Origin: Leptolyngbyaceae cyanobacterium
Lineage (GTDB): Bacteria; Cyanobacteriota; Cyanobacteriia; Phormidesmidales; Phormidesmidaceae
Length of the DNA: 64,000 nucleotides
Direction: 5' to 3'
NCBI GenBank assembly: GCA_050331235.1
Contig: JBHJHA010000036.1
Coordinates: 32,001 to 96,000, forward strand
Shown piece after piece: positions 15,344 to 32,915 of this stretch. Position 1 is the first letter of the stretch. Every line of letters begins with the position of its first letter. Position numbers and translations under genes: made by a program. The notes below the pieces were generated by a model. It did no database searches. It was given only the letters and a program-made list of their open reading frames with translations, and had not been told where the DNA came from.

Positions 15344-16630
15344 ATGGATGCATGCTACGACGTGAGTAATCGCGAGCGCATTGTAATTGTTGGTGCTGGG
15401 TTTGGGGGCTTCCAAGCGGCGCAATCTTTGGCTGGGGCAGCGGCAGATGTATTACTCATTGATCGCAACAACTACCACACGTTTATTCCGCTGCTATATC
15501 AGGTAGCTACGGGGCAGTTAGAGCCCAACTTGGTGGCTTACCCGATTCGGACAAAGCTGCGCCGGATGAAAAATGTTCGCTTTTTACAGGCGGATGTGCG
15601 GCACATTGATTTGGAGCATAAGGTTATCGGCGTTGGTGACGATCTGATTAGCTATGACTATTTGGTTATCGCGACCGGTGCTGAGTCTAGCTTTCATGGG
15701 GTGCCAGGGGCAGTGGAGCGAGCGTTTACCCTGCACAGCTTGCGAGACGCGATTGCCCTGCGTAACCGTTTTCTCTCCTGTTTTGAGCAAGCTGCAACTA
15801 CCCAAAATGATGAGGCACGGCGCCGGCTCATGACCTTCACCATTGTGGGTGGTGGGGCTACCGGGGTGGAGGTAGCAGGGGCGCTGGCCGAGTGGTTGCA
15901 GGGGGCGATCGCCCGAGATTTTCCCGAACTGCGAGGATGGGGACGCATTGTCTTAATCCAGTCCGGCTCGGGGCTGCTGCAAGAGTTTTCGCAGAAATTG
16001 GGGAACTATACGCACCGTCACCTGCAGCGGTTGGGGGTCGATGTTCGCTTAAATGTCAAAATTGCTGAGGTTTCAGCAACGACGGCTCAGCTCTCAGACG
16101 GGACTGTTATTCCCACCTCAACGGTAGTCTGGGCGGCGGGCATTCGGGCTGCAGAGCCGATGGTGGCCCAGCCCTTTGAGCAAGCGGCTAAGGGGAAAAT
16201 GGTGGTCAAGGAAACCCTGCAGCTAACGGAGCAGGCTAATGTGTATGCGATTGGCGACGTGGCGTACTTTGAAAAGTCTGGAAAGGTGCTGTCTGGGGTA
16301 GCCCCAGAAGCTCTCCAGCAGGGCGTTGCCGTGGCCCGCAACATTCGTCGGCAGCTCCAGGGCGAATTACCGCAACCGTTTAGCTATCTCAATAAAGGAC
16401 GGCTGGCAATTATCGGCGGCTATGGCGGCGTCGGTCGCGTAGCCGGCATCAACTTTGGCGGCTTTGTGGCTTGGTTAATGTGGTTGCTGGTACACGTAAC
16501 TTATTTGCCAGGGTATCGTAGCCGTCTTGTGGTGGTATTAACCTGGCTGCAAAACTACATTACGGGAGATCGCTCCCAGCGCCAACTCTCTGCACCGCCG
16601 CTGCCCGAATGCCCCGATTCACTACCTTGA
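15344..16630 (+). CDS. Type II NADH dehydrogenase family (NDH-2) flavoprotein
   Basis: IVGAGFGG, FIPLLYQVATG, IVGGGATGVEVAG, AIGD, A.QQG; start may be GTG 15362. Confidence 0.88.
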   Translation: MDACYDVSNRERIVIVGAGFGGFQAAQSLAGAAADVLLIDRNNYHTFIPLLYQVATGQLEPNLVAYPIRTKLRRMKNVRFLQADVRHIDLEHKVIGVGDDLISYDYLVIATGAESSFHGVPGAVERAFTLHSLRDAIALRNRFLSCFEQAATTQNDEARRRLMTFTIVGGGATGVEVAGALAEWLQGAIARDFPELRGWGRIVLIQSGSGLLQEFSQKLGNYTHRHLQRLGVDVRLNVKIAEVSATTAQLSDGTVIPTSTVVWAAGIRAAEPMVAQPFEQAAKGKMVVKETLQLTEQANVYAIGDVAYFEKSGKVLSGVAPEALQQGVAVARNIRRQLQGELPQPFSYLNKGRLAIIGGYGGVGRVAGINFGGFVAWLMWLLVHVTYLPGYRSRLVVVLTWLQNYITGDRSQRQLSAPPLPECPDSLP

Positions 16631-16642
16631 TCAAGAACGCCT

Positions 16643-17194
16643 ATGCCCCGTCCCCAAACTGGTTTAAAGACGAATGATATCGCTCTCGCCTATGTGCTGC
16701 TGCGAGTAGTGGTGGGCATCAACTACTTCAACCATGGATTTACCCGCATTGGCAATATTCCCGGCTTTGTCAACGCGATGGTGGGGGCCATGGATAGAGC
16801 CTGGATGCCTGAACCTTTGGTTCGTACTACTGCTGTTCTCGTCTCCCCCGTCGAGCTCGTCTTCGGCCTGTTCCTGCTGTTGGGGTTGTTTACTCGGATT
16901 TCTGTGATAGTGCTCTTTGTGCTGATGGCGATATTGATGTACGGCGTCACCATCGTGCAAAACTGGGATTCGGCCTCAAGCCAGTTAATCTACAACATTG
17001 TGCTGTTTATTCTCTTAGCGGCCCAGGGGTACAACCGTTGGTCGCTTGACGATGTGTTGTTTGGGCGCGATCGCTCACAAGTCGTTGACCCGTCTGGCAA
17101 TCCGACCGATGCTGTCAATTCCCGTAGACGTGGAGCACGATGGCATAAGCCAGGCCGGATTTCATACTTCTGGCCGAAGGGGCCTTCACATTAA
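16643..17194 (+). CDS. DoxX-family membrane protein
   Basis: LLRVVVGINYFNHGFTRI, ELVFGLFLLLGLFTR, WSLD. Confidence 0.8.
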   Translation: MPRPQTGLKTNDIALAYVLLRVVVGINYFNHGFTRIGNIPGFVNAMVGAMDRAWMPEPLVRTTAVLVSPVELVFGLFLLLGLFTRISVIVLFVLMAILMYGVTIVQNWDSASSQLIYNIVLFILLAAQGYNRWSLDDVLFGRDRSQVVDPSGNPTDAVNSRRRGARWHKPGRISYFWPKGPSH

Positions 17195-17321
17195 CTCAAT
17201 TAGGATAAATCAGTGTTGATTTCCGTTAGCGGATTGGTGAGGAAAGTCTGTGGATTTTTCTCCGCGAAGAGTGTTTCCTTGACGCTAGTCAGGCATTAGC
17301 AGTTGCACTGAGATATTACTG

Positions 17322-17723
17322 ATGAAATATTTGCCCCTGGTTGCCCGAATTGCCCTTGCTTTAGTCTTTCTCGTATCTGGTGTTAAACATTTGGTCGGTT
17401 TTTCAGGATTTGTCGACATGATCGGACAAAGCCTGCCCCTTGCGCCGTTACTGGCGATTGGTACGATTGCGTTTCAGATTTTGGGCGCGCTTTCTTTGAT
17501 TCTTGGCTACAAAGTTAATATCGGTGCCACACTGCTGTTGGTTTTTCTGATTCCAGCGACGCTGGTCTATCATAATCCGCTCATTGACGGTAGTCAGATG
17601 ACTGCATTCCTCAAAAATCTTGGACTAGTGGGTGGTCTTTTGTTGGTGATTTATGCGGGTGCAGGCGCAGCCAGTGTTGATCGCAGTCAAAGCCGGTCAG
17701 AGCACTATCCAGAAGTCAGTTAG
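17322..17723 (+). CDS. DoxX-family membrane protein
   Basis: ARIALALVFLVSG..H, FLKNLGLVGGLL, GAGAASVD. Confidence 0.85.
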   Translation: MKYLPLVARIALALVFLVSGVKHLVGFSGFVDMIGQSLPLAPLLAIGTIAFQILGALSLILGYKVNIGATLLLVFLIPATLVYHNPLIDGSQMTAFLKNLGLVGGLLLVIYAGAGAASVDRSQSRSEHYPEVS

Positions 17724-17760
17724 TGGATGGCAATCGCGGAATTTTGCATACTTAACCGCC

Positions 17761-17797
17761 AAATCCTACTTGTTGTTTCAGGTAGGATTTTTAATTT
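17761..17797 (+). terminator. Rho-independent terminator after the second DoxX gene
   Basis: AAATCCTACTTG-loop-CAGGTAGGATTT followed by a T-rich tract. Confidence 0.65.
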
Positions 17798-18067
17798 AAG
17801 GGCAACCACAGAAGATTCAGTCTGAGATTCCATGGGTGATGTATTGATAACCTGGCAGCGAGACCATCACTTTTGGAAAACTTAGTAAGAGTAGTCGCAC
17901 AATGCGTGGTGAATCCCGCATCCGTGGTCTACTAGCTACAAGCTTCGCCTATGAATAATTTGGCTGCGCGACACCTATCCTTCTCATGTCCTGGGTCAGG
18001 TTTTGCCCCGGCGAAATGTTGAGCCAAATCTTGCTTCCAAAACCGAATTTTCGGAAACTGACACCCC

Positions 18068-19543
18068 ATGGCTGACTCTAAACTCAAAAACTACATCAAC
18101 GGTGAATGGTGCGTCTCAAGCGCAAGCGATCGCTTGCCAGTGCACAATCCCGCGACCGCAGAGATCTTAGCGGAGGTGCCACTTTCTCCCGCGGCAGAGG
18201 TGGATGCGGCAACTGCTGCTGCTGTTGAGGCCTTTGCTGAATGGCGGCGGATGCCAGCGGTGGAGCGAGTGCAGTATCTGTTTAGACTCAAAGCCAGCTT
18301 AGAGCGTTACGCCGATGAGCTGGCTGAGTTAGTCACGTTAGAGTGTGGCAAAACTCTGAAAGAGTCTCGCGGTGAACTGCAGCGAGCCATTGAGAATGTT
18401 GAGGTTGCCTGCGGAATTCCCACGGCTATGCAGGGCGCTTTTTCTGAGGATATTGCCCGGGGCATTGACGAGTTTATGGTGCGTCAGCCTTTGGGAGTGG
18501 CGGCGGCGATCGCCCCGTTTAACTTTCCCGCCATGATTCCGTTTTGGTTCATGCCTTATGCCCTTGCCTGCGGCAATACCTATCTGGTGAAGCCCTCCGA
18601 AAAGGTGCCCCTGACTCTGCAAAAAGTGTTTGAACTGATTGACCAGGTTGGGTTTCCCGCTGGGGTGGTTAACTTGGTGAATGGGGCAAAGGAAACCGTC
18701 GACGCAATTCTCCAGCATCCTGATATCCGGGCCATTAGCTTTGTGGGTTCATCGCCGGTGGCTCGATATATCTATGCTCAGGCTGCAGCTCAGGGCAAGC
18801 GGGTGCAGTGTCAAGGCGGGGCCAAAAATCCGGTTGTCGTCTTGCCCGATGCTGATGTAGCCATGACGACTCGCATTGTAGCGGATAGCGCGTTTGGCTG
18901 TGCTGGCCAGCGATGTCTGGCTGCCTCTTTGGCGGTGACTGTGGGAGACGCTAAAGCTGAGTTTACCGACGCGATCGCGGCTGCCGCTGCTAGTCGGGTG
19001 ATCGGCAACGGATTAGATCCCGATGTGCAAATGGGGCCGGTGATCACTGCTCACAGCCGCGATCGCATTGCCTCCCTAATTCAAGCAGGGGTTGATGAAG
19101 GTGCTGAAGTGCTGGTTGACGGTCGTAGACCTGGCATTGCTGGCCTCGAACGGGGCAACTTCATCAAACCGAGTGTGCTGCAAGCGGTGTCACCTGCCAG
19201 CAAGATTGCTCAAACCGAGATTTTTGGCCCCGTTTTAGGCTTGTTGCACGTGGCCACCATTGATGAGGCGATCGCCCTTGTCAACCGGAGCTCCTGGGGT
19301 AATATGGCTTGTCTCTTTACCAGTAGCGGGGCCGCGGCGCGTAAGTTTCGCTACGAAGCTGAAGCCGGCAATATTGGCATCAATATCGGGGTGGCGGCAC
19401 CGATGGCGTTTTTCCCTTTCAGTGGCTGGAAAGAAAGCTTTTTTGGCGACTTGCACGGTCAAAGTCACCATGCGGTGGAATTCTTCACCCAAACAAAAGT
19501 CGTGATTGAACGCTGGCCTAAAGAATGGAGCCGACAGTTCTAA
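18068..19543 (+). CDS. mmsA: CoA-acylating methylmalonate/malonate-semialdehyde dehydrogenase
   Basis: [50 protein letters not shown]. Confidence 0.88.
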
Positions 19544-20409: not shown

Positions 20410-20868
20410 TTACACCTTCAACAGTACTTGGTCGCCTTCAATTTTGGCCTCATAGGTTTCAAGCGGATCGGTTGCGGGACCGGACGCAACTGAGCCATCT
20501 GGGTTGAAGCTGGAGCCGTGGCAGGGACAGGTAAATGCGCTTGCTTCCCAGTCGACACTGCAGCCCTGATGCGTGCATAAAGAATTGACAGCAATCAAAG
20601 CATCGGCGTTGTTGGGGTCGCGGGTGACAACAAATTGGGTTCCACGAAAGTCTTTATCAGAGAGGGTCCCCGACGCATCGAGTTCGGATACCGAGCCGAT
20701 AGCGACAAAGCCATCTTCGCGGGGGGCCGAATCTGCGGCGGCGGTATCATCGGTAGCTTCAGTATCGCTGGTTGAGGTCGGGTCTGACTGACAGGCGGCG
20801 ATCGCGACCGGCAAAGAAGTTGCCAGCACCCCCACGCCCATCCAGTTGACAAAGTCACGTCGATTCAT
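20410..20868 (-). CDS. Tat-exported Rieske [2Fe-2S] lipoprotein (PetC3-like)
   Basis: MNRRDF twin-arginine signal, IAAC lipobox, CTHQGC and CPCHGS boxes. Confidence 0.9.
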
Positions 20869-20901
20869 TGTTCCGTTTTCCTCGCAAAATATTGATGATC
20901 A

Positions 20902-22596
20902 TTACAAAGTATCGGCCGATGTCAATATTTGGGCGCGTTTCCAACCGCCCCAGCGGCGGAGGGCAGTGACACCGACCAATAGCAAGTCGGCACTGACGAC
21001 CCCGGCAATTAACAGCTCCGAGCCGCCGGTGCCAAAGCCGTAACTATGTAGACCTGTGCCCAGTACAAAGTTGACGCCATACCAAGCCATCAGCACAGCA
21101 TTGAATGACACAATGCTAGCGACATGGATGCCGAAGTCACCGATCCAGCCGACTAAACGCCCATGCAGAGGGGCAAGGTAGCAAAGCAAGGCTATGAGCG
21201 CCCAGGTTTCCTTTGGATCCCAACCCCAAAAGCGACCCCAAGAAAAATGAGCCCAAATCCCCCCGAGGATAATGCCAGCGGTGAGTAATAGCACCCCGAC
21301 TTGCAAAACGCGGTAGTTGAGCTGGGATAGAACTTTGAGGCGCTGGCTAGCCTGGGGGGTAAACAGATAATTGAATAAAGCTACATGGCCGACTCCCAGT
21401 GCCAAAGCGAAACTCGCATAGCTGAGGGTGATGGTGGGAACGTGGATGCTGAGCCAAAAGTTATCTCGCAGTACAGGCACTAAGGGCGCAATGCTCGGAT
21501 CGAGTACGGCGGGCAAACTGTCAGCTAACACCAAACAAACCACGGAGAGGGGGGCGGCGGCCAATAGGTAAAACCGCTTGCGAGAAAAGACCTCCAGCAA
21601 CAGGGCGATCGCCGTAATACCAAAACCACACCACACCACTGATTCGTACATGTTGGTGACCGGTGGGCGATCGGCAATCTGCATCCGCAGGAAAAAGCCG
21701 TAGCTTTGGACTGCAATCCCCGCTGTAAATAATCCAATGGCTGACCAGTAAATGGGCCAGCGCTGCATCCACTGACTGGTCAACAGCACCACAAAGGCGA
21801 TCGCATAGAGCTGCCAAGCTTTAGCAAACGGATGGAAATGGTTGAAATGGACTTCGCGCGCCATGATGCCATCAGTGGGATAAACTCCAGGACTAAGCTG
21901 CTGAAGTCCTGACTTAAGATCGGTGGTAAAGGCGCTAATCATGGGCACATGGGTCAAACCGCCTTGCAACAGTGCCTGCTGCATCGTGGTAAAGGTGGCG
22001 AGGAGAGGCGCCACCGACTCGGGACTGTAGAGCTGGGTAGCTCCCTCCAAGCCGACCCACTTACCTTTGCGATCACTGGGGTGGGGCACAATTGGTAAGC
22101 CACGATCGCTGACTGACTGATACAGCAGATTGAGCCGGTCTTCAACAGTCAAAGCTTCTCGTTCATTGCGACTGAGATCGAGCTCATTCAGTTCCTTTTG
22201 ATGGGCGCTGCTGACAATGGTCCCGAGTTCTCGATTTGCCATCAATTCCTGAAAGCTGAAATGTTTACGCTCGAGGGACAGTCCAGCCACCTCCTTTAAG
22301 GGCCGATAGTTTACCAGCACAAAAGGTTCCTCATTCCAGTTGCGAGTGTTGAACCACATCGCGAGATAAGTGCTGAGCGCTCTTTCGCGGGTGCCATCGG
22401 TGTGTTTATAAGTGGTTGAACCGTTGATTTTGGCGACGGTTTCCTGGGCCACCGTATCCAAGGGCTTCTTCCGTCCGTCTAGCTGCACTGCGAGCGATCG
22501 CAGCGACGCTAATCCATCCGGTTGCCACTGACTGACGGGCAACACCAGTAGCAAGCAACCAAGAATTAAACCGATGAAAAACGTAATCAGTTTCAT
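20902..22596 (-). CDS. ccsA: System II cytochrome c synthase CcsA-like protein with long N-terminal extracytoplasmic domain
   Basis: WWD domain WAHFSWGRFWGWDPKETW, PVLRDNFWLSIH, GLHSYG, PVTNMYES; N-terminal GRKKPLDT. Confidence 0.9.
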   Translation of the reverse strand: MKLITFFIGLILGCLLLVLPVSQWQPDGLASLRSLAVQLDGRKKPLDTVAQETVAKINGSTTYKHTDGTRERALSTYLAMWFNTRNWNEEPFVLVNYRPLKEVAGLSLERKHFSFQELMANRELGTIVSSAHQKELNELDLSRNEREALTVEDRLNLLYQSVSDRGLPIVPHPSDRKGKWVGLEGATQLYSPESVAPLLATFTTMQQALLQGGLTHVPMISAFTTDLKSGLQQLSPGVYPTDGIMAREVHFNHFHPFAKAWQLYAIAFVVLLTSQWMQRWPIYWSAIGLFTAGIAVQSYGFFLRMQIADRPPVTNMYESVVWCGFGITAIALLLEVFSRKRFYLLAAAPLSVVCLVLADSLPAVLDPSIAPLVPVLRDNFWLSIHVPTITLSYASFALALGVGHVALFNYLFTPQASQRLKVLSQLNYRVLQVGVLLLTAGIILGGIWAHFSWGRFWGWDPKETWALIALLCYLAPLHGRLVGWIGDFGIHVASIVSFNAVLMAWYGVNFVLGTGLHSYGFGTGGSELLIAGVVSADLLLVGVTALRRWGGWKRAQILTSADTL

Positions 22597-22686
22597 AGGG
22601 CCAGCGATATTCAACAAAGATCAGGGCTATAAATTTGCGTGGGCGATCGCCCGGTGAACGGTTGTGGTGACAGTGCGATGCATTCG

Positions 22687-24498
22687 TTACTTGCCAAACA
22701 CCGCTAAAATTGGAATTGTTCCGCCAGTTTCCTCGGGCACCTCTTCCGCGACCGATGGGGCCTCGTCGGGGGAGGGCGATCGCCACCATTGGCGCCACCG
22801 CTTGAGCAAACTAGGTCCGTAAAACATGGTGGCGATACCCAGGACGACCAGCAACGAGCCGGTCCAAGTCAGGGCCGTGACCCACCAAGGTTCGCGCTTG
22901 AGCTGCAGAGTTGACTGCTGCAGGTCCCCCGGATTCCAAGACGCTTGGGCGAGCTTCCAACCCCGAAACCAAGTGGGGTGATTCATCCATACTGAGCGCT
23001 GTACTGCCGTATCCGTTTGCGGGTCAAACAGGGTCAAATCACTGGTCCACATGGCGACCGACTCGCTACCCTCGTTGCGCTCCACGATGAAATCGTTTAG
23101 CTTGACGTAAAACGGTAGCTCGAGCAGCTTGGGGCTAAACGCGGCAAAATATTGCCCAGCACTGGTTTCGAGGACTTTTGGTTCTCCCCAGGGGAGCCAA
23201 AAGTCCTCGCCCTCGGCGGTCGCTATGTGCAGCGCCGGAGTCCCTTCATTCGGGCGGGCATTGGCTGCAACCGGCATCACCGGTACAATCTGTCGCTGCA
23301 CCTGTGCGTGGTCAAGTTGTTCGACCAGCGTAATTTGAAAATCGGCCCAGCCCGGAATGACGGCTTCCCCGGGCTGGAATTTGCCCGTGCTGAAACCCTG
23401 GGCAGACGCGGCGGCGAAATACAGGTCCTGCCCAGGCGTTGTCACGATGCGAAAATAATCCGTAGGAGTCGCTACCGGCGGCTTATAGGCGATCGCTATC
23501 TCAATCCCGTCGTCCGAGCGTACCGGAGGCAGCCCTGGGTTGCCAAAGACAAACCATCGTTCCTGTTGACTTTCCTGGGAGACTAACAACTGCACCGCTG
23601 GATTGCGAAACTGCTCGGAGGCTGATGTGGGCTGCCCATCACCATTCAGGCGAAAATCGGGCCAGACAGCGGTGACTTCGACGTTGGTCCCCTCCTCCAA
23701 CGTGAGGGACTGTCCCTGGATTTGAGCGATATCAAAGTGGCGATCGCGCTGCTTAGCCGCAACGATGGCTATCTCGCCGAGGGGATGCTCAACCTCGGCG
23801 GGTGGACTCAACCACCGCTGCTGCTCAGCAGCATCGCCGACGGACACAATTTCAAAATGGGCAGGACCGATGTCTAACTGGCTATATCCTGCGGGAGCGA
23901 CGGCTAGCCAGCGGTCCAACGTTTGACCCATGCGATCGCTGTGCAGCTGAATCTTGACGGCTGGATTAGGAACCGTGCCCGTATTGTCAAACGCGACGGT
24001 CTTGATGGCGTTGTCGCTATAGCCCAGCAGCGAGAGCCCCGCAAATTGCTGAGGATATACTGACCCATCAGAACGCACAAAAATATCACTTTGCTGGCGG
24101 GTGCGATCGGGTGCAACGACTTCCAGCAGGTCACCCTGAATGCGAATTTGGGACCCTGGACCAGCATCCGTGCGTACGAGCAGCATCCCTTCCGTACTGA
24201 GATGAATTACAGCGGCTGAGCCAGCGATGATGATGACTAGGCCCCAGTGGGTTAAGGCAAAGCCCACCTTGCGGGGACCTTTCCAAGGCCAGCGGTTCAG
24301 GGTCGAGAGACCCAAATTAACTGCTAACAAAAACATCAGAGCGCCAAACCAAGCGCTCTTATAAATCTCTCGTTGAACGGTGAGTGGACCCACATTTGAT
24401 TCATAAAAAGTAGCACCAATCAAGATGACAGAAATCACTGTCAAGAGTGGTACTGCTAATCGAATAGAGCCTAAATATTGGATGAGTCGAGACTTCAT
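22687..24498 (-). CDS. ResB/CcsB-like cytochrome c biogenesis protein
   Basis: LGSIRLAV, IYKSAWF..L..LLAVNL, GFALTHWG (conserved His), MNHP..FRGWKL.QASW, C-terminal TM. Confidence 0.85.
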   Translation of the reverse strand: MKSRLIQYLGSIRLAVPLLTVISVILIGATFYESNVGPLTVQREIYKSAWFGALMFLLAVNLGLSTLNRWPWKGPRKVGFALTHWGLVIIIAGSAAVIHLSTEGMLLVRTDAGPGSQIRIQGDLLEVVAPDRTRQQSDIFVRSDGSVYPQQFAGLSLLGYSDNAIKTVAFDNTGTVPNPAVKIQLHSDRMGQTLDRWLAVAPAGYSQLDIGPAHFEIVSVGDAAEQQRWLSPPAEVEHPLGEIAIVAAKQRDRHFDIAQIQGQSLTLEEGTNVEVTAVWPDFRLNGDGQPTSASEQFRNPAVQLLVSQESQQERWFVFGNPGLPPVRSDDGIEIAIAYKPPVATPTDYFRIVTTPGQDLYFAAASAQGFSTGKFQPGEAVIPGWADFQITLVEQLDHAQVQRQIVPVMPVAANARPNEGTPALHIATAEGEDFWLPWGEPKVLETSAGQYFAAFSPKLLELPFYVKLNDFIVERNEGSESVAMWTSDLTLFDPQTDTAVQRSVWMNHPTWFRGWKLAQASWNPGDLQQSTLQLKREPWWVTALTWTGSLLVVLGIATMFYGPSLLKRWRQWWRSPSPDEAPSVAEEVPEETGGTIPILAVFGK

Positions 24499-24560
24499 AT
24501 TTAGAAGAGATACCGCAGAAACTCGTATTCCAAATCATTCATTCGCTTTCCAATAGTTTT

Positions 24561-24628
24561 TGTAAAAAGCATCACAAAAATAAATTAATTGGTGCGGAAA
24601 GCGATCGTGACCCATGCGAAAACCGCAT
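24561..24628 (-). promoter_or_regulatory. Leftward promoter: NtcA-like box plus LysR (NtcB-like) palindrome
   Basis: Minus strand GTG-N8-TAC at 24575-24562; perfect ATGCG-N5-CGCAT at 24614-24628; centres 52.5 bp apart. The -10 at the N22 position is only AATGAT. Confidence 0.55.
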
Positions 24629-24752
24629 CGATCATCCTAAAAATATATCTAAGACGCCTTTAAAATTCCTCCTTCAGAAGGATTTTTGAGTCGTCTTTAG
24701 AGATCGAAAGCTAACTCGATAACCGGATATGTACTGAATAAACGTATCAAAA

Positions 24753-24847
24753 ATGCATTTATTGCATCGAATCAATGCGTTAAGCGTATGGTTTTTATGG
24801 GAATTGTGCTTGGTTTTACAAAACAAGAAATATACCTTCTCTATTGT
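24753..24847 (+). promoter_or_regulatory. Rightward promoter: LysR (NtcB-like) palindromes, NtcA-like box and -10
   Basis: ATGCA-N5-TGCAT (24753-67), second ATGCG-N5-CGTAT (24775-89), GTG-N8-TAC (24806-19), then N22, then TATTGT (TAN3T, 24842-47). Confidence 0.7.
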
Positions 24848-25128
24848 CAAGTCCATGGTTCTGTTTTTGGTTTGCGAAAGAAAATCACGCTTTCGCTCTG
24901 AATATTTGAAGTCAGAGTCCGCGTCTGGCTTTCGAAATTTAGACGGTTTTGCAGTTGAATTTTTTGTTGATTGAGTATTGCCGTTCAGAGATTGCTTCAG
25001 GGTTGATTGGTTTTTCGGCTTCTGGCGCTGGAATTTGATTGTTCTGTTGGGTGCGATTTTTGGCGGTCTAGCTACTCAATGACTGTGTTTTTCTTTGGGA
25101 TATAGAGTTTCTTGGGAGACAGGGATTA

Positions 25129-26150
25129 ATGGTTTCAAGTACGAATGACGCGTCTGAGGAGAAAGGATTACAGGTTAGCTATTGGAGCGTAGCTTTGAGA
25201 AGGTGACTCCCCGAGCCGATGATTTTGTAGCGAGCTTTTACAGCAATCTATTCGCTGATTATCCAGACGCGAAGCCGCTGTTTGCCCACACCAATATGGC
25301 TAAGCAGCAGAAAATGCTGCTGGAATCTCTTGTCTTTGTTGTCGAGAATTTGCGCCAGCCCGAGGCTTTGTCGGGGGCTCTTCAGGGCCTCGGTGCCCGG
25401 CATATGAAATATGGGGCGCTGCCTGAGCATTATCCGTTGGTGGGCAACTCGCTGCTCAAAACGTTTAGCCAGTACTTGGGAAATGATTGGACTCCAGAAA
25501 CTCAGCAGGCTTGGGCTGAGGCTTATGGAGCGATTACGATGCTCATGTTGGAGGGGGCCGATTACGCCCCAGAGCAAGTCCAGTTGGAGCCGCCGGCTGA
25601 GGTGGATGAAGCCACAGGACTCAAGATTCAGCTGCTGGAAGAGAGCTTTGGTAAGGTGGCTCCCCAGGCTGATGCGTTTGTCGGCAGTTTTTACGACAAC
25701 TTATTCACGGACTACCCAGCCGCTAAGCCTTTATTTACCCATACCAATATGGGCAAGCAGAAAAAGATGCTGCTGGAGTCTTTGGTGTTTGTTATCGAAA
25801 ACCTGCGCCAGCCCGGGAAACTGACCGAGGCTTTGAAGGGGCTCGGCACTCGCCATGTGCAGTACGGCGCTTTGCCCGATCACTATCCGCTGGTGGGCAA
25901 CTCGTTGCTCAAGACCTTTGAGCAGTACCTCGGTAGTGACTGGACTGATGAAGTGAAGCAGGCCTGGGTGGATGCCTATGGTCTTATCACAACGGTCATG
26001 TTGGAAGGCGCTGATTATGATCGAGCCTCTGTCCAGCTACCCTCTACAGCTACGCTCGAAGCGCCAGAAAGCAACATCAATATGGGGGCAGCAGCCGGTA
26101 TTGCTGGCGGCGGCCTGATTGCCTTGATTGCGCTGATCTTGCTGGTCTAA
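25129..26150 (+). CDS. Tandem two-domain globin (flavohemoglobin/Vgb-type globin fold) with C-terminal TM anchor; apparent 1-bp frameshift at about 25177
   Basis: Two near-identical domains (FY..LF.DYP.AKPLF.HTNM.KQ.KML; LG.RH..YGALP.HYPLVG) and a hydrophobic tail. ATG 25129 with RBS is out of frame with the body, which is open only from TTG 25182. Confidence 0.85.
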
Positions 26151-26177
26151 GTCGAGGATGCACACGGAGCAAGATTG

Positions 26178-26822
26178 ATGGCTTTGAGAAGCCGAATACT
26201 GAGGGGGCGATCGCTCCTGACTCTGAGAACGGCAATCGTCCTCGTTTGCATTATCCTGGTGGGCTGGTTTGGTGCGGCGTTTGCCCTGGACAACAAGCAG
26301 GCGTTCTTGCCAGGGGAGACCTCAGTCGGTCACTACCTGTTTGAAACGTCCTGCAGTTCTTGTCACGAAGGGTTTAAGCCCGTGAGTAACGACACCTGCA
26401 TGCGCTGTCATGAGGCGGAGATGGCTGAGGATAAGCACGGTGCGGCTAAGTTCCGGGATCCTCGGTGGGCGGGGGAGCTGCAAAAGATTGAAGCGCTGAC
26501 TTGCACCACTTGCCATAACGAGCATGTCCACATGTTTGGACGGGGGGTCCATTTGCAGCCCGATCTATGTATGAACTGCCACCAAGGCATCATTGAGGGC
26601 GATCTCAAGAGTCATGACGGCTTTGCCGCCGATGGGTGTTGGACGGCGGGCTGCCACAACTACCACGATCACCGCTCAATTTCGACTGGGTTTTTGATTG
26701 AAAATGTTGACCAACCGCCCATGCTGCCGGTGCAGCTGTTACCTGATCGAATCGTTTTAACCCAGGTGTATAGGGCACCGAGTCCTGATCTAAGTGACGC
26801 CTTTTTGCAAGGGGGGGCATGA
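26178..26822 (+). CDS. Pentaheme cytochrome c (4 CXXCH + 1 CX4CH), N-terminal TM/signal
   Basis: CSSCH, CMRCH, CTTCH, CMNCH, CWTAGCH. Confidence 0.88.
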   Translation: MALRSRILRGRSLLTLRTAIVLVCIILVGWFGAAFALDNKQAFLPGETSVGHYLFETSCSSCHEGFKPVSNDTCMRCHEAEMAEDKHGAAKFRDPRWAGELQKIEALTCTTCHNEHVHMFGRGVHLQPDLCMNCHQGIIEGDLKSHDGFAADGCWTAGCHNYHDHRSISTGFLIENVDQPPMLPVQLLPDRIVLTQVYRAPSPDLSDAFLQGGA

Positions 26823-27631
26823 TGTTGCAGCGACTCTGGGGTCGAGCGATCGCCCTGATGGTATTGCCGCTATTGCTATTGGGCAATGGGGGCCTGCCAG
26901 CCCAGGCTAACCCTGTTGATCGCGCTCAAGTTGAGACCGTTACTCAGCTTTGGCAAACCAGTGCCCATGCCCTGAATGAAATTAACTGCTCCAGTTGTCA
27001 TGAATCATCCGCGACTCAGGAATTTGTGGCCCGCCCGGGCGTCGAAAGTTGTCAATCCTGTCATCAGCAAGACGTCGATACCTTCTTACTCGGTAAGCAC
27101 GGCATTCGGCTGCTGGAGGGTGATACGCCCCTCACGCCCGCGATGGCTCGTCTGCCGATGCAGCCCGACGTGATGAACCAGCCCATGACCTGCAATAGCT
27201 GTCACGACGTTCACTCGGTCAATACCATGCAGGCGGCGGTCGATTCTTGCTTGGGGTGCCACAGCGACTCGCACTCGTTGAACTACGGTGATTCCCGCCA
27301 TGCGGACCTGTTTGCCGCTGATCGCGACTTGCCGCGCCCCTCGGCGACCTCGGTGAGCTGTGCTACCTGCCACCTGCCGCGTCATCAGACTGGGACGGGC
27401 GATAGCGCAGTTACGCTGATCAATCACAACAATACCTACACGCTGCTCCCCCGCGATCGCATGGTCAAGGACGTGTGCATGAATTGCCACGGTATGGAGT
27501 ACAGCTACAACAGCATTTTTGACGATGACCTCGTGGAGGCAAATTTTAACGCCCCACCGACCCTTGCCCTAAAAACTTTTGACCTTGTCCGGGCGTTTGA
27601 AGAGCGTCGCACTGATCAGGGTGAGAGTTAG
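26819..27631 (+). CDS. Hexaheme cytochrome c, exported
   Basis: Signal peptide ending AQA; CSSCH, CQSCH, CNSCH, CLGCH, CATCH, CMNCH; ATGA overlap with the upstream gene. Confidence 0.9.
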   Translation: MMLQRLWGRAIALMVLPLLLLGNGGLPAQANPVDRAQVETVTQLWQTSAHALNEINCSSCHESSATQEFVARPGVESCQSCHQQDVDTFLLGKHGIRLLEGDTPLTPAMARLPMQPDVMNQPMTCNSCHDVHSVNTMQAAVDSCLGCHSDSHSLNYGDSRHADLFAADRDLPRPSATSVSCATCHLPRHQTGTGDSAVTLINHNNTYTLLPRDRMVKDVCMNCHGMEYSYNSIFDDDLVEANFNAPPTLALKTFDLVRAFEERRTDQGES

Positions 27632-27776
27632 GGCGATCGTCAAATTCAACGTTCGCATCGACGAACAATTGCGCACATCGCGATCGCATCACCTTCGCAC
27701 AATTTCACGTTTCACGTTTGGCAGTTTCTGATTCTAAACAGAGGAGAAAAAGGATATGACACTTGTAGGAAGATGT

Positions 27777-28409
27777 ATGAATACCCTGCGAACTCGCACG
27801 GTCGCTTTCATCGCGATCATCATGGCGGTTGCCGTTACTGCGATCTCTTGTAGCAGCAGCGGCACAACTGCAACCGCCGCCCCCGGCATCTCGCCCGAGT
27901 TGGTGGCTGATTACATTCACACGGTTATGGAGGCTGACCGCACTGCCTATACCAAGCACGTGGTCAACCGCGCCACCATGCTAGAAGGCAAAGAAAAGGC
28001 CGACGGCGTAGTTCCGGTTGAAGCAACTGAGGCTTGGCAGCAAGGTGAGGGCATTCCCCTGCCCGCCCAAATGTTCCGTCTGGGCTCTGAGATTGCCAAC
28101 GAAAAAGGTTATTTCACTTACAACCTCATCTCACCTTGGTATATCAATGACAGCCACGCCCCTAAAGGCGAGTTTGAGGAAACCGCGGTCGAAACCATGA
28201 TCGAAACTGGTGAACCCGTCAAAGACTATCAAGAAATTGGCGGGCAGCAGTACTTCTCGGCGATGTACCCCGACAAGGCGGTGGCTGAGGCTTGTGTATC
28301 TTGCCACAACACCCATCCCATTCACCTGGAGCGCTATCCCGATAAGCAGTTCGAGATGGACGAGGTGATGGGCGGCATCGTCATCAACATTCCCCTAGAG
28401 GGAGCCTAA
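27777..28409 (+). CDS. DUF3365 (Tll0287-like) monoheme c lipoprotein
   Basis: Lipobox AISC, PLPAQMFR, PDKAVAEACVSCHN, GGIVINIPL; alternative start at 27756. Confidence 0.85.
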   Translation: MNTLRTRTVAFIAIIMAVAVTAISCSSSGTTATAAPGISPELVADYIHTVMEADRTAYTKHVVNRATMLEGKEKADGVVPVEATEAWQQGEGIPLPAQMFRLGSEIANEKGYFTYNLISPWYINDSHAPKGEFEETAVETMIETGEPVKDYQEIGGQQYFSAMYPDKAVAEACVSCHNTHPIHLERYPDKQFEMDEVMGGIVINIPLEGA

Positions 28410-28454
28410 CGCTAGTTCCAGACGACTAGCACTTCACATCTCCTAGTGAAACCA

Positions 28455-28492
28455 CCGGAGAGGTTAATGGCCCGCGCCGTTGGCCTCTCCGG
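28455..28492 (+). terminator. Intergenic stem-loop (terminator or mRNA-stabilising hairpin)
   Basis: CCGGAGAGGTTAATGG-CCCGCG-CCGTTGGCCTCTCCGG, 16-bp stem with G-U pairs, no U tract. Confidence 0.5.
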
Positions 28493-28647
28493 GGCCACGA
28501 TACCTACATTGAGCCTCCGCACTAGGTTTCTTTCGTCTGTTGGCAACGGTGACAGCGCCGTGATGGAGGCACCTGGAGTCGCTTAATGTGCCTTCAGGTG
28601 CTCCCTTAAACATATTTTTATTAGGACACTTACAGCCGGTTTGAGCC

Positions 28648-29376
28648 ATGAGTAGATCGCCTCGACCTCAGCATGTAGATCCCCCGTCTAATCAGCACTC
28701 CATCGAGTCACATGAGCCGCGGGTGGCCGATGCGGTGGCGGCGATCGCCCCCCAAAGGCAAAGGGCCTTTAAGCCGCGGGGTATCAAACCCAGCTTTAAG
28801 GTCCTGATCGGCCTGACATTGCTGACAGCGCTGCTGCTGACCCCATTTGTCGTGAGTGATCTATATCTCGATGCGCTTAGGGCGCGATCGTTTGATTTGC
28901 ATCAGTTTATCCGGGGGGAACTGTACAAGCAGTCGACCGGCTACGGAGCTTTGGTCTTGGTGTTAGTTGAGATGCTACTGACGGTGCGCAAGCGCGGTGG
29001 TGGCTGGCTGGCTCGGATCAAACTGCCAGGCTCAATGTTGATATGGCGGAGTACCCACATTTTTCTGGGCGTAGGGTTGCTGGGATTAGTGCTGGTGCAT
29101 ACTTTGGGCGCTAACGGCCTGAACTTTAACGCCATCTTTCTCTGGGTATTTTTTGCGACGACTTTGACGGCGTTGGTCGGCGTGGTCGCTGAAACTGGCA
29201 TTTTGGAATCCACCCAGAGCTACTTTGGCAAACTGCCGGGGTCAAACGTGGCTTTAACGAAAGGGCCACTCATTCGCGGGTTGAGAGCCATTTGGCTGAC
29301 TAGCCATATCTTTTTTGTGGCTGTCTTTGGTGTGATGCTGATTTTTCACATTGCGCTGGCTTACTACTATCAGTGA
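28648..29376 (+). CDS. Integral membrane protein, putative di-heme b (ferric-reductase-like TM) subunit
   Basis: About 5 TMs; two His pairs each 14 residues apart (STHIFLG...LVH; SHIFF...IFH). Confidence 0.7.
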   Translation: MSRSPRPQHVDPPSNQHSIESHEPRVADAVAAIAPQRQRAFKPRGIKPSFKVLIGLTLLTALLLTPFVVSDLYLDALRARSFDLHQFIRGELYKQSTGYGALVLVLVEMLLTVRKRGGGWLARIKLPGSMLIWRSTHIFLGVGLLGLVLVHTLGANGLNFNAIFLWVFFATTLTALVGVVAETGILESTQSYFGKLPGSNVALTKGPLIRGLRAIWLTSHIFFVAVFGVMLIFHIALAYYYQ

Positions 29377-29464
29377 AGACGCTGACTTATTTAGCACGCT
29401 GGTTGGGTAAACGGGTGGAGTCTTGGGTGTCGCATTTTGTGTTGGTGTATTACGGATAGAGGCT

Positions 29465-29995
29465 ATGACGGATCAAATTCGTTTGTTGGAAACCAGTTTT
29501 GCCCAGGTCCGACCTAAGGCGATGGCCTTCTCAGATTGTTTTCACCGCCATTTATTTCAAAACCATCCAGACATCGAGCCCATGTTCAGCGACGTGAGCC
29601 TCGAATTGCAAGAAAAAAAGCTGATCGCTTCCCTTGCGCTCATTGTTGAAAATTTGCATAACCCGGCGGCTTTAGCCCATGCACTTCAAGCCTTGGGGGC
29701 CTATCACGTGACCAAGGGAACCCTGGCAGAGCATTACCCCTATGTGGGGCAGGCCCTGATGCAGGCCTTTGCCGAATTTTTGGGGGATGAATGGACGCCT
29801 GCTGTCGCTGAGGCGTGGCAGGCGGCCTATCGCACGATTTGCGATTTGATGCTGGAGGGGGCGGAGCATCCCCAAGCGTATCTAGAGGGTGAGCTGACCT
29901 TTTATGAATGGCTAGATCTATATGGCGAGTCTAGTCCGACGTTACACAAGCTTGTGGAGTCGACCACCCACTTTAAATATGGCGCTAAAGGGTAG
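29465..29995 (+). CDS. Single-domain globin with C-terminal extension
   Basis: LLETSFAQV, LQEKKLIASL, LGAYH, EHYPYVGQAL, WTP.VAEAW..AY. Confidence 0.85.
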   Translation: MTDQIRLLETSFAQVRPKAMAFSDCFHRHLFQNHPDIEPMFSDVSLELQEKKLIASLALIVENLHNPAALAHALQALGAYHVTKGTLAEHYPYVGQALMQAFAEFLGDEWTPAVAEAWQAAYRTICDLMLEGAEHPQAYLEGELTFYEWLDLYGESSPTLHKLVESTTHFKYGAKG

Positions 29996-30051
29996 CGGCG
30001 TTGATGCAGACCTTTTGACCAAGCGATTTGATATTGATGGAGTCGGTAGTG

Positions 30052-30528
30052 ATGACGGTGAATCGAGGTTCTGACAACCCAGCGATGAATCGGGGCAGCC
30101 GGTGGGCGATCGTGATAATTGCCACCTTTGCGATCGCCGCATTTTGGCTAACTCGTCCGGTAGCGGATGCCCATTTTTCTCCGGTATCTGGCCTAATGTC
30201 GTTGAAAGCCAGTGCTCAACAGGCGATGCCCTATCAGGTCGCAATGCACAATGGCAAGCCGACGCTGATTGAGTTTTACGCTGACTGGTGTACCACCTGC
30301 CAGGGGATGGCCCCTACCTTGGCGTCTATCCACGAGCAATTGGGAGGGTCTGTCAACTGGGTAATGCTGGATATTGATGATCCCCAGTGGCGCGACCAGA
30401 TACAGCAGTTTCACGTTACCGGTGTGCCCCATCTGGTTCTGCAAACGGGGCAGGGGGCGATCGCTGACAGTTTTGTGGGTAAGGTACCCGGGCCCATTCT
30501 CTTACGGAGTATTGAGCAAATGTTCTAG
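30052..30528 (+). CDS. Membrane-anchored thioredoxin (TxlA/HCF164/CcsX-like)
   Basis: TM segment then EFYADWCTTC and GVPH; start uncertain (30037/30052/30085). Confidence 0.85.
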   Translation: MTVNRGSDNPAMNRGSRWAIVIIATFAIAAFWLTRPVADAHFSPVSGLMSLKASAQQAMPYQVAMHNGKPTLIEFYADWCTTCQGMAPTLASIHEQLGGSVNWVMLDIDDPQWRDQIQQFHVTGVPHLVLQTGQGAIADSFVGKVPGPILLRSIEQMF

Positions 30529-30587
30529 GCCTTCTCAAGTTCTACTGCTGTAGTGGAGAAGCGCACGGTTAACTCAGAGGTGAAATC

Positions 30588-30800
30588 ATGTCAAAGCCAT
30601 CCGCCTGTTTCTCGTCCCCGGCATGTGAATGGGTCAATTCGCAGACCCAGCGCGGGGTGAGTGATTACGTGTCAGGGTTGCATCGCCATATGGTCCAGAC
30701 ATCGGTAACTGCACAGGTGCGCAGCAATCTGCAGCTGGCGAGCCTAGAGACTCAGTATTCTCGCTATCTCTCAACGGCGTCTTTGACCCGAAAGGTGTGA
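30588..30800 (+). CDS. Small hypothetical protein
   Basis: GAGGTG RBS; stop overlaps the next start (GTGA). Confidence 0.4.
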   Translation: MSKPSACFSSPACEWVNSQTQRGVSDYVSGLHRHMVQTSVTAQVRSNLQLASLETQYSRYLSTASLTRKV

Positions 30801-31024
30801 CCCAAATGGCAATTTTAAATCGGTTGCTGCTTTTACTGAAGTTTTTGGAAACCCTGGTTGAGTTCGGCGATTTTTTAACCACTCCGGTGGGAATTGCTGG
30901 AATCTTCTGCCTGATCAGCTATCCGGCGTTTACGTTAATGGGGTGCGACCCCACGGCGGCCGCCATTTTGGCGAGTACGGCAGCACTCACTGTACACTGC
31001 ACCGTAAATCATCCAAGCGATTAG
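30797..31024 (+). CDS. Small hydrophobic hypothetical protein
   Basis: Overlaps the previous ORF and ends 10 bp before the ChaN gene. Confidence 0.35.
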   Translation: MTQMAILNRLLLLLKFLETLVEFGDFLTTPVGIAGIFCLISYPAFTLMGCDPTAAAILASTAALTVHCTVNHPSD

Positions 31025-31034
31025 GGACTGCTCA

Positions 31035-31916
31035 ATGTCAATCCGATTTCAACTTTGGGGTTGGGGCTGGGCCCTCGCGGGCACGTTGCTAATCACCGCA
31101 CCCGCCTGTTCTGGCGATGAGGCGATCGCCCCGCAGTCAACGCCGATGGTCCTCTCTAGTACTGAGGATGACGCCTTTCAAGCCTTACAGTCAGCCGATG
31201 TAGTTTACTTAGGAGAACGGCACGATAGCCCCCTTGACCACGCAGCTCAACTAGAGATCATTAAGGCCCTTTATGCCGCCGATCCAGAGATTGCGATCGC
31301 CCTAGAGATGTTTCAGCGGCCCTTTCAACCGGTGATTGATCGGTATCTAGCGGGAGATATTTCCGAGGCAGCCCTAGTCAAGCAGACTGAATACCAAGAA
31401 CGTTGGGGCTTTCCCTGGGAGTTTTACGCGCCGGTCGTGCGGTTTGCCCAGGCCCAAGACCTGCCTGTGCTCGCACTGAATGCCCCCGCGGAAATCACCC
31501 GACAAATTGCCCGCGAAGGGCTTACTAGCTTATCCGGCAATGACTTTCGCTATATTCCACCGGTTGAGGCGATCGACACCACTAACCCAGACTACCGCGA
31601 CTTTGTCACCGCTGCGTTTGGTGCTCACGGGGCCCACGGAGATTTTAATTTCGACAACTTTTTTGCGGCGCAGGTGACCTGGGACGAAACGATGGCCATG
31701 ACCATTGCTGAGTTTAAGGCCGATAATCCCGATACTCAGGTCGTCGTATTGGCGGGTAATGGACACGTGATCTACGGCTGGGGCATTCCTGACCGGGTAC
31801 AGCGCCGACTGGGCGAGGAGCTGATACAGCAAATTGTGGTGCTGAATCCGAGTCCTGAGGTGGAGCAGGCAAAGGGGGCGATCGCCGATCTCTTTTGGTA
31901 CAGCGAAGGGCCATAG
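31035..31916 (+). CDS. ChaN-family (heme-binding, iron-regulated) lipoprotein
   Basis: Lipobox-like PAC, VVYLGERHD, ALEMF, AQVTWDETMA, VLAGNGH..YG.GIP.RV.RR. Confidence 0.88.
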   Translation: MSIRFQLWGWGWALAGTLLITAPACSGDEAIAPQSTPMVLSSTEDDAFQALQSADVVYLGERHDSPLDHAAQLEIIKALYAADPEIAIALEMFQRPFQPVIDRYLAGDISEAALVKQTEYQERWGFPWEFYAPVVRFAQAQDLPVLALNAPAEITRQIAREGLTSLSGNDFRYIPPVEAIDTTNPDYRDFVTAAFGAHGAHGDFNFDNFFAAQVTWDETMAMTIAEFKADNPDTQVVVLAGNGHVIYGWGIPDRVQRRLGEELIQQIVVLNPSPEVEQAKGAIADLFWYSEGP

Positions 31917-31950: not shown

Positions 31951-32874
31951 CTAGGCCAAATTCAGCGCCCCTTGGCGGCGTAACGCCTGCTTTTGTTCGG
32001 GTGATAATCCAGAGGCACCAGTGAACAATGCTCCCCGCACCTTGGCCTGAGCAAACTGTGTGCCGTCGAGTTGGGCGTTTTCTAAATTGGCCTCCCGGAG
32101 ATCAGCACCCCTTAGGTTGGCCCGACTTAAGTTGGCTGATGCGAAATAAGCGCCATAGAGCGATGCTCCTCGCAGATCTGCCTCCATTAATATTGCATTC
32201 CAAAGATTGCTACAGTCGAGCTGGGTCATTTGCAGAATCGCTCCGGTGAGATCGCTTTCCGACAGATCGCAGTTCAGCATGTCGGCTTCGGATAAGTTGG
32301 CCCCCATGAGCAGGGCACTGGAAAGCCGCGATTGAGTCAAGGTGGCGCCCGCTAAAGAGACGCCCACCAGCGTAGCTTGATGCCACGACGATTGGGAGAG
32401 GTTGGCGGTGGCAAAGCTCGATTGACTAAAATTGGCTGCATCGCTTTGGGCCCCCACGAGGCTAGCCTGGTCAAACCGCGATCGAGGAGCCTCAATAGCG
32501 CGCAGATCAGCCTGATCAAAGCAGGACTGGCGCGCATTGACTTGTTCCATTTGACTGCCGTACATCATGACACCGGCAGCGATCGCCTGTTGCAAGTTGG
32601 CCCGGTGCAACTGAGCCTGAGTTAAGTTGGCTTGCCGTAAGCAAGCGGCTTCTAACCGACACTCAGACAAATCAGCGAGGATCAGCGTCGCCTGAGAAAA
32701 GTCAGCAGCCCAACAGGAAGCACGATGTAGCTTAGCTCGGCGCAAGTAAGCCCCTGAAAAGTTGCCCTCATTCAAACAATTTTGACTGAGATCCAAATTG
32801 CTTAATTCAGCCCTCGCAAGGGATTGCCCTGCCTGTAGTTTGGCGAGCACCTGTGAGATGGCTAACTGTGCCAT
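31951..32874 (-). CDS. Pentapeptide-repeat protein
   Basis: Continuous A(N/D)L(S/R)X repeats; GAGGAG RBS before ATG 32874. Confidence 0.9.
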   Translation of the reverse strand: MAQLAISQVLAKLQAGQSLARAELSNLDLSQNCLNEGNFSGAYLRRAKLHRASCWAADFSQATLILADLSECRLEAACLRQANLTQAQLHRANLQQAIAAGVMMYGSQMEQVNARQSCFDQADLRAIEAPRSRFDQASLVGAQSDAANFSQSSFATANLSQSSWHQATLVGVSLAGATLTQSRLSSALLMGANLSEADMLNCDLSESDLTGAILQMTQLDCSNLWNAILMEADLRGASLYGAYFASANLSRANLRGADLREANLENAQLDGTQFAQAKVRGALFTGASGLSPEQKQALRRQGALNLA

Positions 32875-32915
32875 GGCAACCTCCTCTAAACACTTCAATA
32901 TCATAAAAGGTTCCC

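Follow-up and report, generated by a model that had tools for sequence, protein, structure and literature searches.

A 64,000-nucleotide stretch of a Leptolyngbyaceae cyanobacterium genome (assembly GCA_050331235.1, contig JBHJHA010000036.1, positions 32,001 to 96,000; hereafter the window) carries a cluster of two divergent gene rows that encode globins, multiheme cytochromes c, a protein that is likely a di-heme cytochrome b, and a cytochrome c maturation system. Judging from its promoter sequences, the cluster very probably belongs to the nitrate regulon controlled by NtcA and NtcB, and we are fairly confident that it encodes a membrane wire. The full mechanism that we favor, in which nitrate would induce a conduit for electrons through the plasma membrane and the inner heme of this conduit would recharge a tethered nitric oxide (NO) dioxygenase globin, is put forward tentatively, with slightly less than even confidence. 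Two separate lines, the cyanobacterial promoter and the gene neighborhoods in other phyla, tie the module to nitrate assimilation. All coordinates are positions within the window, with the strand in brackets.

Promoter and gene complement of the cluster

The leftward row (-) consists of resB-like, ccsA-like, and Rieske genes, and the rightward row (+) encodes a di-globin, five-heme and six-heme cytochromes (pentaheme and hexaheme), a Tll0287-like (Cache-heme) protein, a four-His membrane protein, a second globin, and a thioredoxin, followed by two small open reading frames (ORFs) and chaN. All of these had been named in an original prediction made from the sequence alone, and each was re-found at the same place and on the same strand. 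The Pfam families Rieske, Cytochrom_C_asm, ResB, Globin (two stretches plus one), Cytochrom_c3_2 (two genes), Tll0287-like, Thioredoxin, and ChaN scored over the cut-off; no Pfam family did so for the four-His membrane protein or the two small ORFs. Also as predicted are the 12 heme-c motifs (four CxxCH and one CX4CH in the pentaheme, six CxxCH in the hexaheme, and one CxxCH in the Cache-heme protein), the three globin domains (by Pfam, two in the di-globin and one in the second globin), and the four-His membrane protein; the Rieske protein is a lipoprotein, and the Ccs system is the second in the genome.

The 630-base spacer between the rows holds a predicted NtcB box (24753..24789, +) that matches 15/16 positions of ATGC-N7-GCAT-N7-ATGC-N7-GCAT. 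A predicted NtcA box, GTG-N8-TAC (5/6; 24806-24819, +), lies 16 bases past it, and a predicted -10 box, TATTGT (TAN3T; 24842-24847, +), 22 bases past the NtcA box; many relatives carry GTA where the window has GTG. The NtcB consensus, located 15 bases ahead of the NtcA box, is described in a cryo-electron microscopy preprint (10.1101/2022.10.10.511513), according to which NtcB raises nirA when ammonium is replaced by nitrate, and TAN3T 22 bases on is the layout of class II NtcA promoters (PMC3898017).

An alignment of 12 spacers revealed two mirror-image conserved blocks, and the nirA-nrtP-narB promoter of the same genome carries the same conserved block as the cluster promoter. The nirA gene was identified over the cut-off and its operon lies on a different contig from the cluster; an ntcB gene is also present in the genome (8H3V, E = 5e-120). 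The NtcB consensus is matched at 14/16 or better only three times in the genome, at nirA, at the cluster, and at a perfect box ahead of a HEAT-repeat gene. When the genome was scanned with a matrix, the two top scores were those of nirA (41.8) and the cluster promoter (41.4); the site ranked next reached 19.0 and the one on the resB side 18.6. This matrix was built from the cluster promoters of 10 of 11 relatives, with the present genome and any nirA left out; one row was dropped, one row was a base off register, and the anchor rule was set after the alignment had been viewed. Scored with a rebuilt matrix against 200 base shuffles per locus, the promoter came out above every shuffle in 20 of 21 held-out loci and above 199 in the other; these loci are kin and statistically non-independent. 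On the resB side, the predicted NtcB box (12/16; 24628-24592, -) and NtcA box (5/6; 24575-24562, -) of the maturation operon are weaker: they outscored all 40 shuffles in the window, as they did in 16 of 30 relatives' loci, and stood at chance level in several. FNR-type sites were not conserved in the cluster promoter. The sole 16/16 NtcB box (L140:204-240; G000 contig C31, 30003) precedes a 376-aa HEAT-repeat gene, which we assume may be a nirB-type gene, and a phosphoketolase-like gene; no NtcA box was found at the usual spacing after it.

The membrane protein (28648..29376, +) has five helices in a model with a predicted local distance difference test (pLDDT) score of 92. Its four His residues, His137/151 and His220/234, are invariant in 96/96 aligned relatives and form two pairs, spaced 14 apart, in two membrane helices. 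Weak profile matches among these 96 members were to DUF4405 (57), cytochrome b561 (24), and ferric reductase (Ferric_reduct; 12). A wide fold search was topped by Escherichia coli CybB (5OC0; Z = 10.1, root-mean-square deviation 3.2, 130 residues aligned), and the top 14 also included a designed two-heme bundle, cytochrome b6, FdnI, and HyaC, amid talin bundles; a PDB sequence search with the alignment gave no match. Given the four invariant His, the weak family profiles, and the CybB-led fold search, the protein is likely a di-heme cytochrome b. Stand-alone four-His membrane proteins of 160-240 aa (P0133-P0169) also occur outside cyanobacteria.

The pentaheme (26175..26822, +) is membrane anchored and the hexaheme (26819..27631, +) is exported, their genes overlapping by four bases. 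They are the only ORFs of at least 60 aa with two or more CxxCH motifs in the whole 4.8-Mb genome; to our knowledge, characterized cyanobacterial c-type cytochromes are monoheme. The two correspond to the N-terminal and C-terminal halves of an 11-heme protein, and two proteins of 444 and 465 aa, found with the pentaheme query, span both cytochromes end to end. The fifth pentaheme site is CX4CH. Spare His residues that are invariant or nearly so number five and six, for five and six hemes, a count that fits a wire of bis-histidine (bis-His) hemes. A structure model of the hexaheme (pLDDT 47) was too poor for use.

The Cache-heme protein (Tll0287/DUF3365, PF11845; 27756..28409, +) is a stand-alone lipoprotein with one heme c at a CxxCH motif and no signaling domain. 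Its lipobox Cys32 and Met106 are kept in 34/34 cyanobacterial rows. Met106 is graded as a candidate sixth heme ligand because the alignment to Tll0287 (5B82), reached in a profile search at E = 0.083, is weak and lies outside the ligand region.

The di-globin (PF00042 twice; 25129..26150, +) is tail anchored and comprises two flavohemoglobin-type domains that are predicted to be cytoplasmic, with no signal peptide and a lone C-terminal hydrophobic helix. The window lacks one base behind position 25176 that is present in contigs from three of four sequencing runs, the fourth run not covering the place; the runs belong to one study of stromatolite/mat metagenomes, and one of them is perhaps the source of the assembly. 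This one-base assembly error throws the natural start, ATG 25129, out of frame; we therefore place the start there and put the length at 340 aa. Both domains are 3/3 globins with conserved Tyr, Phe, Gln, and His at what we take to be positions B10, CD1, E7, and F8, respectively. There is no fused FAD/NAD reductase domain, and the membrane tail stands in its stead. Domain number varies among relatives, with a single globin domain in L024, L025, and L123, and in one relative (L018:7640-8641, +) the proximal His is gone from the first domain. A further globin, by our reading of its sequence, is fused to a thioredoxin-like domain (L116:3489-4457, -) upstream of a MarR-like gene.

The leftward row begins with a ResB/CcsB-like maturation protein (PF05140; 22687..24498, -) and continues with a CcsA-type heme c synthase of system II (PF01578; 20902..22617, -). 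The latter has a long N-terminal domain and an invariant WGRFWGWD motif and His; it scores 153.5 against TIGR03144, below the cut-off of 187.6. Since a housekeeping ccsA exists elsewhere in the genome (contig C94), this second Ccs system probably serves the plasma membrane. The components of cytochrome c maturation system II are all found here: CcsA with the WWD motif and His, the ResB partner, and a membrane-anchored thioredoxin (WCTTC; PF00085; 30028..30528, +), which is likely the apocytochrome reductant. The row ends with a Tat-exported (twin-arginine translocation) Rieske [2Fe-2S] lipoprotein (PF00355; 20410..20868, -), predicted to be periplasmic, in which the twin Arg, lipobox Cys26, and cluster ligands are invariant in 30 sequences. 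Its best PDB match is 5CXM (E = 2.7e-18), which we take to be PetC3. In this assembly petC, the gene of the main b6f Rieske protein, falls into two ORFs (L118:2254-2796, -), probably through another one-base assembly error.

Distribution in cyanobacteria and other phyla

The hexaheme was found in 19 of the 41 genomes of a sample of relatives and in 5 of 401 genomes of a phylum sample (one match being weak), and the pentaheme in 67 of the 140 genomes of the order, across 14 of 18 genera. The named homologs are cyanobacteria, which together with nirA and ntcB marks the genome as cyanobacterial; hexaheme carriers among them include Leptolyngbya sp. Heron Island J, Rubidibacter lacunae, and Oscillatoria sp. 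CS-180. We fetched 33 relatives' loci (12 + 2 + 19) around cytochrome matches, picking long contigs, so the cytochromes are present in all 33 by construction. The Cache-heme, membrane-protein, and thioredoxin genes also occur in 33/33, and a globin lies directly upstream in 32, the remaining locus stopping at a contig edge. Within the fetched stretches, resB is present in 30 loci and ccsA and the Rieske gene in 29, with one further case when the stretch is extended; the maturation row is not nearby in two loci of one genus. Synteny across genomes, on which the original prediction had made its case depend, is thus strong in these loci. Globin counts, here and in the foreign loci below, rest on other globin queries, the window di-globin query being out of frame.

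The same prediction had called the cluster an island. The GC (guanine plus cytosine) fraction of its genes is 0.51-0.57 against 0.526 for the genome, and since this is ordinary and the cluster is common in the order, a recent island is unsupported; a plasmid search gave no match.

As to membership, the core genes stand, and chaN, the second globin, and the small ORFs proved accessory, being patchy among the 33 loci. ChaN, a heme-binding family protein (PF04187; 31035..31916, +), is present in 11 loci, a 75-aa hydrophobic ORF (30797..31024, +) in 12, and a doubtful 70-aa ORF without a Pfam family (30588..30800, +) in 2. The second, soluble globin (29423..29995, +; likely start 29465) follows the membrane-protein gene in six of the loci. 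His replaces Tyr B10 in this protein, and the C-terminal tail is kept across all six aligned copies; the protein may serve sensing or storage rather than turnover. A convergent pentapeptide-repeat gene (31951-32904, -) accompanies the cluster in 20 of the 33 loci, more often than chaN. The upstream genes for an NDH-2-like oxidoreductase, two DoxX proteins, and methylmalonate-semialdehyde dehydrogenase (15344-19543, +) were considered as members and rejected, as they are not conserved beside the cluster. An ESM Atlas search returned unnamed clusters only.

A scan with fused 11-heme proteins gave at least 534 matching stretches, of which the best 80 were analyzed as foreign loci; they come from Proteobacteria, Planctomycetota, Verrucomicrobiota, Myxococcota, and others. 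These 80 loci encode the membrane domain (77), the Cache-heme protein (75), a FAD domain (71), a globin (54), and a monoheme cytochrome (34); ccsA, resB, Rieske, thioredoxin, and chaN genes were found in none of them. Here the four-His domain forms the C-terminal end of a larger protein (about 675 aa) that opens with a region equivalent to NirB's NAD(P)H/FAD and BFD [2Fe-2S] portion. Because this input domain is missing from the cyanobacterial cluster, the term self-contained, applied to it in the original prediction, is too strong.

A nitrate-assimilation gene is present in 32 of the 80 foreign loci and in 22 of the 45 that span at least 18 kb; the genes counted were NrtA-/NrtB-like, NasT, NasA, NirA, NirB, and NirD, some loci having NasT or an NrtA-like gene alone. 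The commonest unrelated neighbor family occurs in 6 of the 80. In L069, L097, and L098 the membrane domain and the undecaheme only appear fused, an effect of long open frames in GC-rich DNA. In a quick-method tree, 20 cyanobacterial rows fell on one side of a long branch; as the tree is unrooted and its rows were chosen by closeness, no donor lineage is claimed. A porin of the alginate-export family, a possible outer-membrane nitrate channel, lies beside nitrate transporter genes in 11 to 17 of the 80 foreign loci (L038, L056, L063, L065, and others).

Proposed electron route and alternative explanations

In the conduit that we propose, NtcA and NtcB would turn on both operons together with nirA-nrtP-narB, and the private Ccs pair and thioredoxin would load the 12 c hemes outside the cytoplasm. 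Electrons would reach the di-heme b on its cytoplasmic face; their source would be NAD(P)H in other phyla and, here, most likely ferredoxin in place of NADH. Ferredoxin is the donor to cyanobacterial NirA and NarB, and our choice follows that precedent. On one branch, the inner heme would re-reduce the globin, which would convert NO and O2 to assimilable nitrate; the cyanobacterial globin would be tethered where the flavin domain stood in other phyla. On the other, electrons would pass outward through 11 bis-His hemes to the Cache-heme lipoprotein and the Rieske protein and could support periplasmic NO or nitrite reduction at low O2. Outward flow is suggested for other phyla because the NAD(P)H of the fused flavin domain is a strong reductant. 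Hcp, NO synthase, and an oxidase of NorB length were not found in this 95.5% complete genome (the oxidase was judged by length).

A wider reading, in which we place slightly less confidence still, is that of a so far unrecognized arm of nitrate assimilation, present in five or more phyla: a membrane complex with some 16 hemes would export cytoplasmic reductant to the periplasm and recycle NO to nitrate. To adapt it to photosynthetic reductant, mat-forming cyanobacteria would have dropped the NADH domain, tethered the globin, split the 11-heme wire, and added the private Ccs system and NtcB control. The part of the original prediction that placed a membrane-crossing electron chain in nitrogen-oxide metabolism is strengthened by the nirA-type promoter pattern, the nitrate neighbors in other phyla, and synteny.

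Several observations weigh against the proposed conduit. As the cyanobacterial cluster has no input domain, both donor and direction are borrowed from other phyla. The spare-His count matches a pure wire, with no open heme site seen. For the membrane protein, a Z-score of 10.1 to CybB is attainable by chance for helical bundles, and Foldseek returned nothing for its model at E = 0.001. No nitrate gene lies within the available DNA in 48 of the 80 foreign loci, and 26 of the 80 show no globin, so that the globin is not core outside cyanobacteria. In the order, ntcB is present in 134 of the 140 genomes, yet 73 have no match to the cluster, which makes the system dispensable for nitrate use. A stand-alone Cache-heme protein of Pseudomonas putida binds NO only weakly and makes superoxide (10.64898/2026.02.01.703092).

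An unlikely alternative is an electron valve or O2 sink, in which a nitrogen-regulated wire would shed surplus reductant onto outside O2, possibly forming superoxide, while the globin would buffer O2 rather than remove NO. Stand-alone Cache-heme proteins do autoxidize fast, yielding superoxide (bioRxiv 10.64898/2026.02.01.703092), the top fold match of the membrane protein is a superoxide-handling cytochrome b561, and the multihemes have no catalytic heme motif; however, the NtcB box indicates nitrate supply and not general nitrogen starvation, and the di-globin has the distal residues of an NO dioxygenase. Also unlikely is a quinol-driven or inward flow, with plastoquinol or a periplasmic donor feeding the di-heme b: one electron would go to the Rieske protein and the c hemes and the other, by way of the b hemes, to the globin, in a reduced bc-like arrangement. 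It would suit the missing FAD input in cyanobacteria and the presence of the Rieske gene in 29/33 loci against 0/80 foreign ones, as well as the quinone-reactive CybB, FdnI, HyaC, and b6 among the fold matches and the acidic globin domains (-6, -4) opposite basic loops (+6, +6). Yet no quinone site was identified, the Rieske gene belongs to the maturation operon, and the fusion seen in other phyla points to an outward direction.

The original prediction leaned toward nitrite, NO, or hydroxylamine conversion, and a periplasmic enzyme of this kind, an 11-heme protein with a catalytic heme of a new type, appears rather improbable. In its alignment to the HAO-like 6H5L (E = 1.4e-4), the hexaheme has an invariant Asp-x-His past its heme-6 equivalent, at what we take, with HAO numbering assumed, to be the position of the HAO catalytic pair; CX4CH is conserved in 59/59 fused 11-heme proteins. 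In the same alignment, however, the CxxCH motif of the HAO catalytic heme 4 (P460) is deleted. The C-terminal helical domain of HAO, which bears the cross-linking Tyr, is absent, as the chain stops about 45 residues past the last heme, in the fused forms too. Every heme site ends in His, none being a CxxCK active-site heme of the NrfA/octaheme nitrite reductase type; there are 11 invariant spare His for 11 hemes; and the profile matches are short repeats common to NrfA, octaheme, and MtrA-type chains. Assignment of the multihemes to a known type of nitrite or hydroxylamine enzyme is accordingly not supported. Because one spare His stands at the presumed position of the HAO catalytic His, a five-coordinate heme site could nonetheless exist. 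It is quite improbable that the cluster supplies iron or heme to the iron-rich nitrate enzymes through a ferric-reductase-like module that reduces periplasmic Fe(III): the weak Ferric_reduct matches (12/96 members) and the adjoining chaN point that way, but chaN is found in 11/33 cyanobacterial and 0/80 foreign loci, a GATAAT half-site was not conserved in 12 promoter regions in a crude test, and the globin would be left unexplained. Least of all do we expect Mtr-like extracellular electron transfer to minerals or neighbors. The similarity of the multiheme repeats to MtrA/DmsE-type proteins, below the cut-off, and the stromatolite metagenome source bring it to mind; against it stand the nitrogen-type promoter and the absence of a porin or surface cytochrome gene from the window and from the 12 cyanobacterial loci mapped gene by gene.

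The cluster is a candidate multiheme wire in an oxygenic phototroph and a candidate membrane reductase for a globin; the electron source of single-domain globins is often unknown (PMC4724949, on Cgb). If our reading is true, NtcB has a target beyond the known nitrate genes. The promoter predicts co-induction with nirA and loss of it in an ntcB mutant, which is testable in the named strains that carry the hexaheme. If NO is handled, the system matters for how mats and stromatolites retain nitrogen, as well as for a module present in hundreds of bacterial genomes (at least 534 stretches).

Comparison with known systems

The promoter resembles that of Anabaena nirA in its NtcB box, NtcA box, spacing (16 bases against 15), and -10 box (10.1101/2022.10.10.511513); there the pattern precedes nirA-nrt-narB, whereas here it is predicted ahead of heme/globin and maturation operons. 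The heme-binding repeats of the multihemes align with those of HAO, octaheme nitrite reductase, and NrfA (6H5L, 4QO5, 2ZO5, 2J7A), and the Asp-x-His is kept; in contrast to that family, the cluster protein has neither the catalytic heme motif nor the C-terminal domain and consists of six hemes plus a separate five-heme half. The membrane protein is like cytochrome b561 and ferric-reductase domains (CybB 5OC0, FdnI, HyaC) in having two His pairs across a four-helix bundle, and in other phyla, as in such reductases, the membrane domain is fed by a fused flavin domain. It differs from them in its identity of at most 13%, in matching no curated family over the cut-off, and in its other partners. 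MsrQ is presumably a further di-heme relative.

The Cache-heme lipoprotein shares PF11845, CxxCH, and a stand-alone, exported form with the sCache_heme proteins and Tll0287, but has an invariant Met and no conserved Cys ligand; the main text of the preprint on those proteins does not mention multihemes, nitrate, or gene neighbors (10.64898/2026.02.01.703092). The Rieske protein, a candidate ortholog of the plasma-membrane Rieske protein PetC3 (PMC12341915), shares with it the Tat signal, lipobox, and short Rieske domain and differs in lying in a nitrogen-type maturation operon.

The closest parallel in function is Bradyrhizobium narK-bjgb-flp-nasC, in which nitrate assimilation makes NO and a globin co-expressed with its own reductant removes it (PMC4724949). 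Common to both are a single-domain flavohemoglobin-type globin, a separate reductant, nitrate co-regulation, and NO removal, the last three being predicted for the cluster. Bjgb and Flp are soluble, however, whereas the cluster globin is tail anchored and doubled and no flavoprotein is encoded; the cluster adds a predicted di-heme b, 12 c hemes, a Rieske protein, and a Ccs system; and bjgb-flp lies inside the nitrate operon, whereas the nirA operon is here on another contig. In a literature search that missed most subscription papers, we found no description of the combination of multihemes, globin, Cache-heme protein, and nitrate. Each part of the cluster belongs to a known family, and its likely job resembles that of Bjgb-Flp, while the build as a whole is apparently undescribed.

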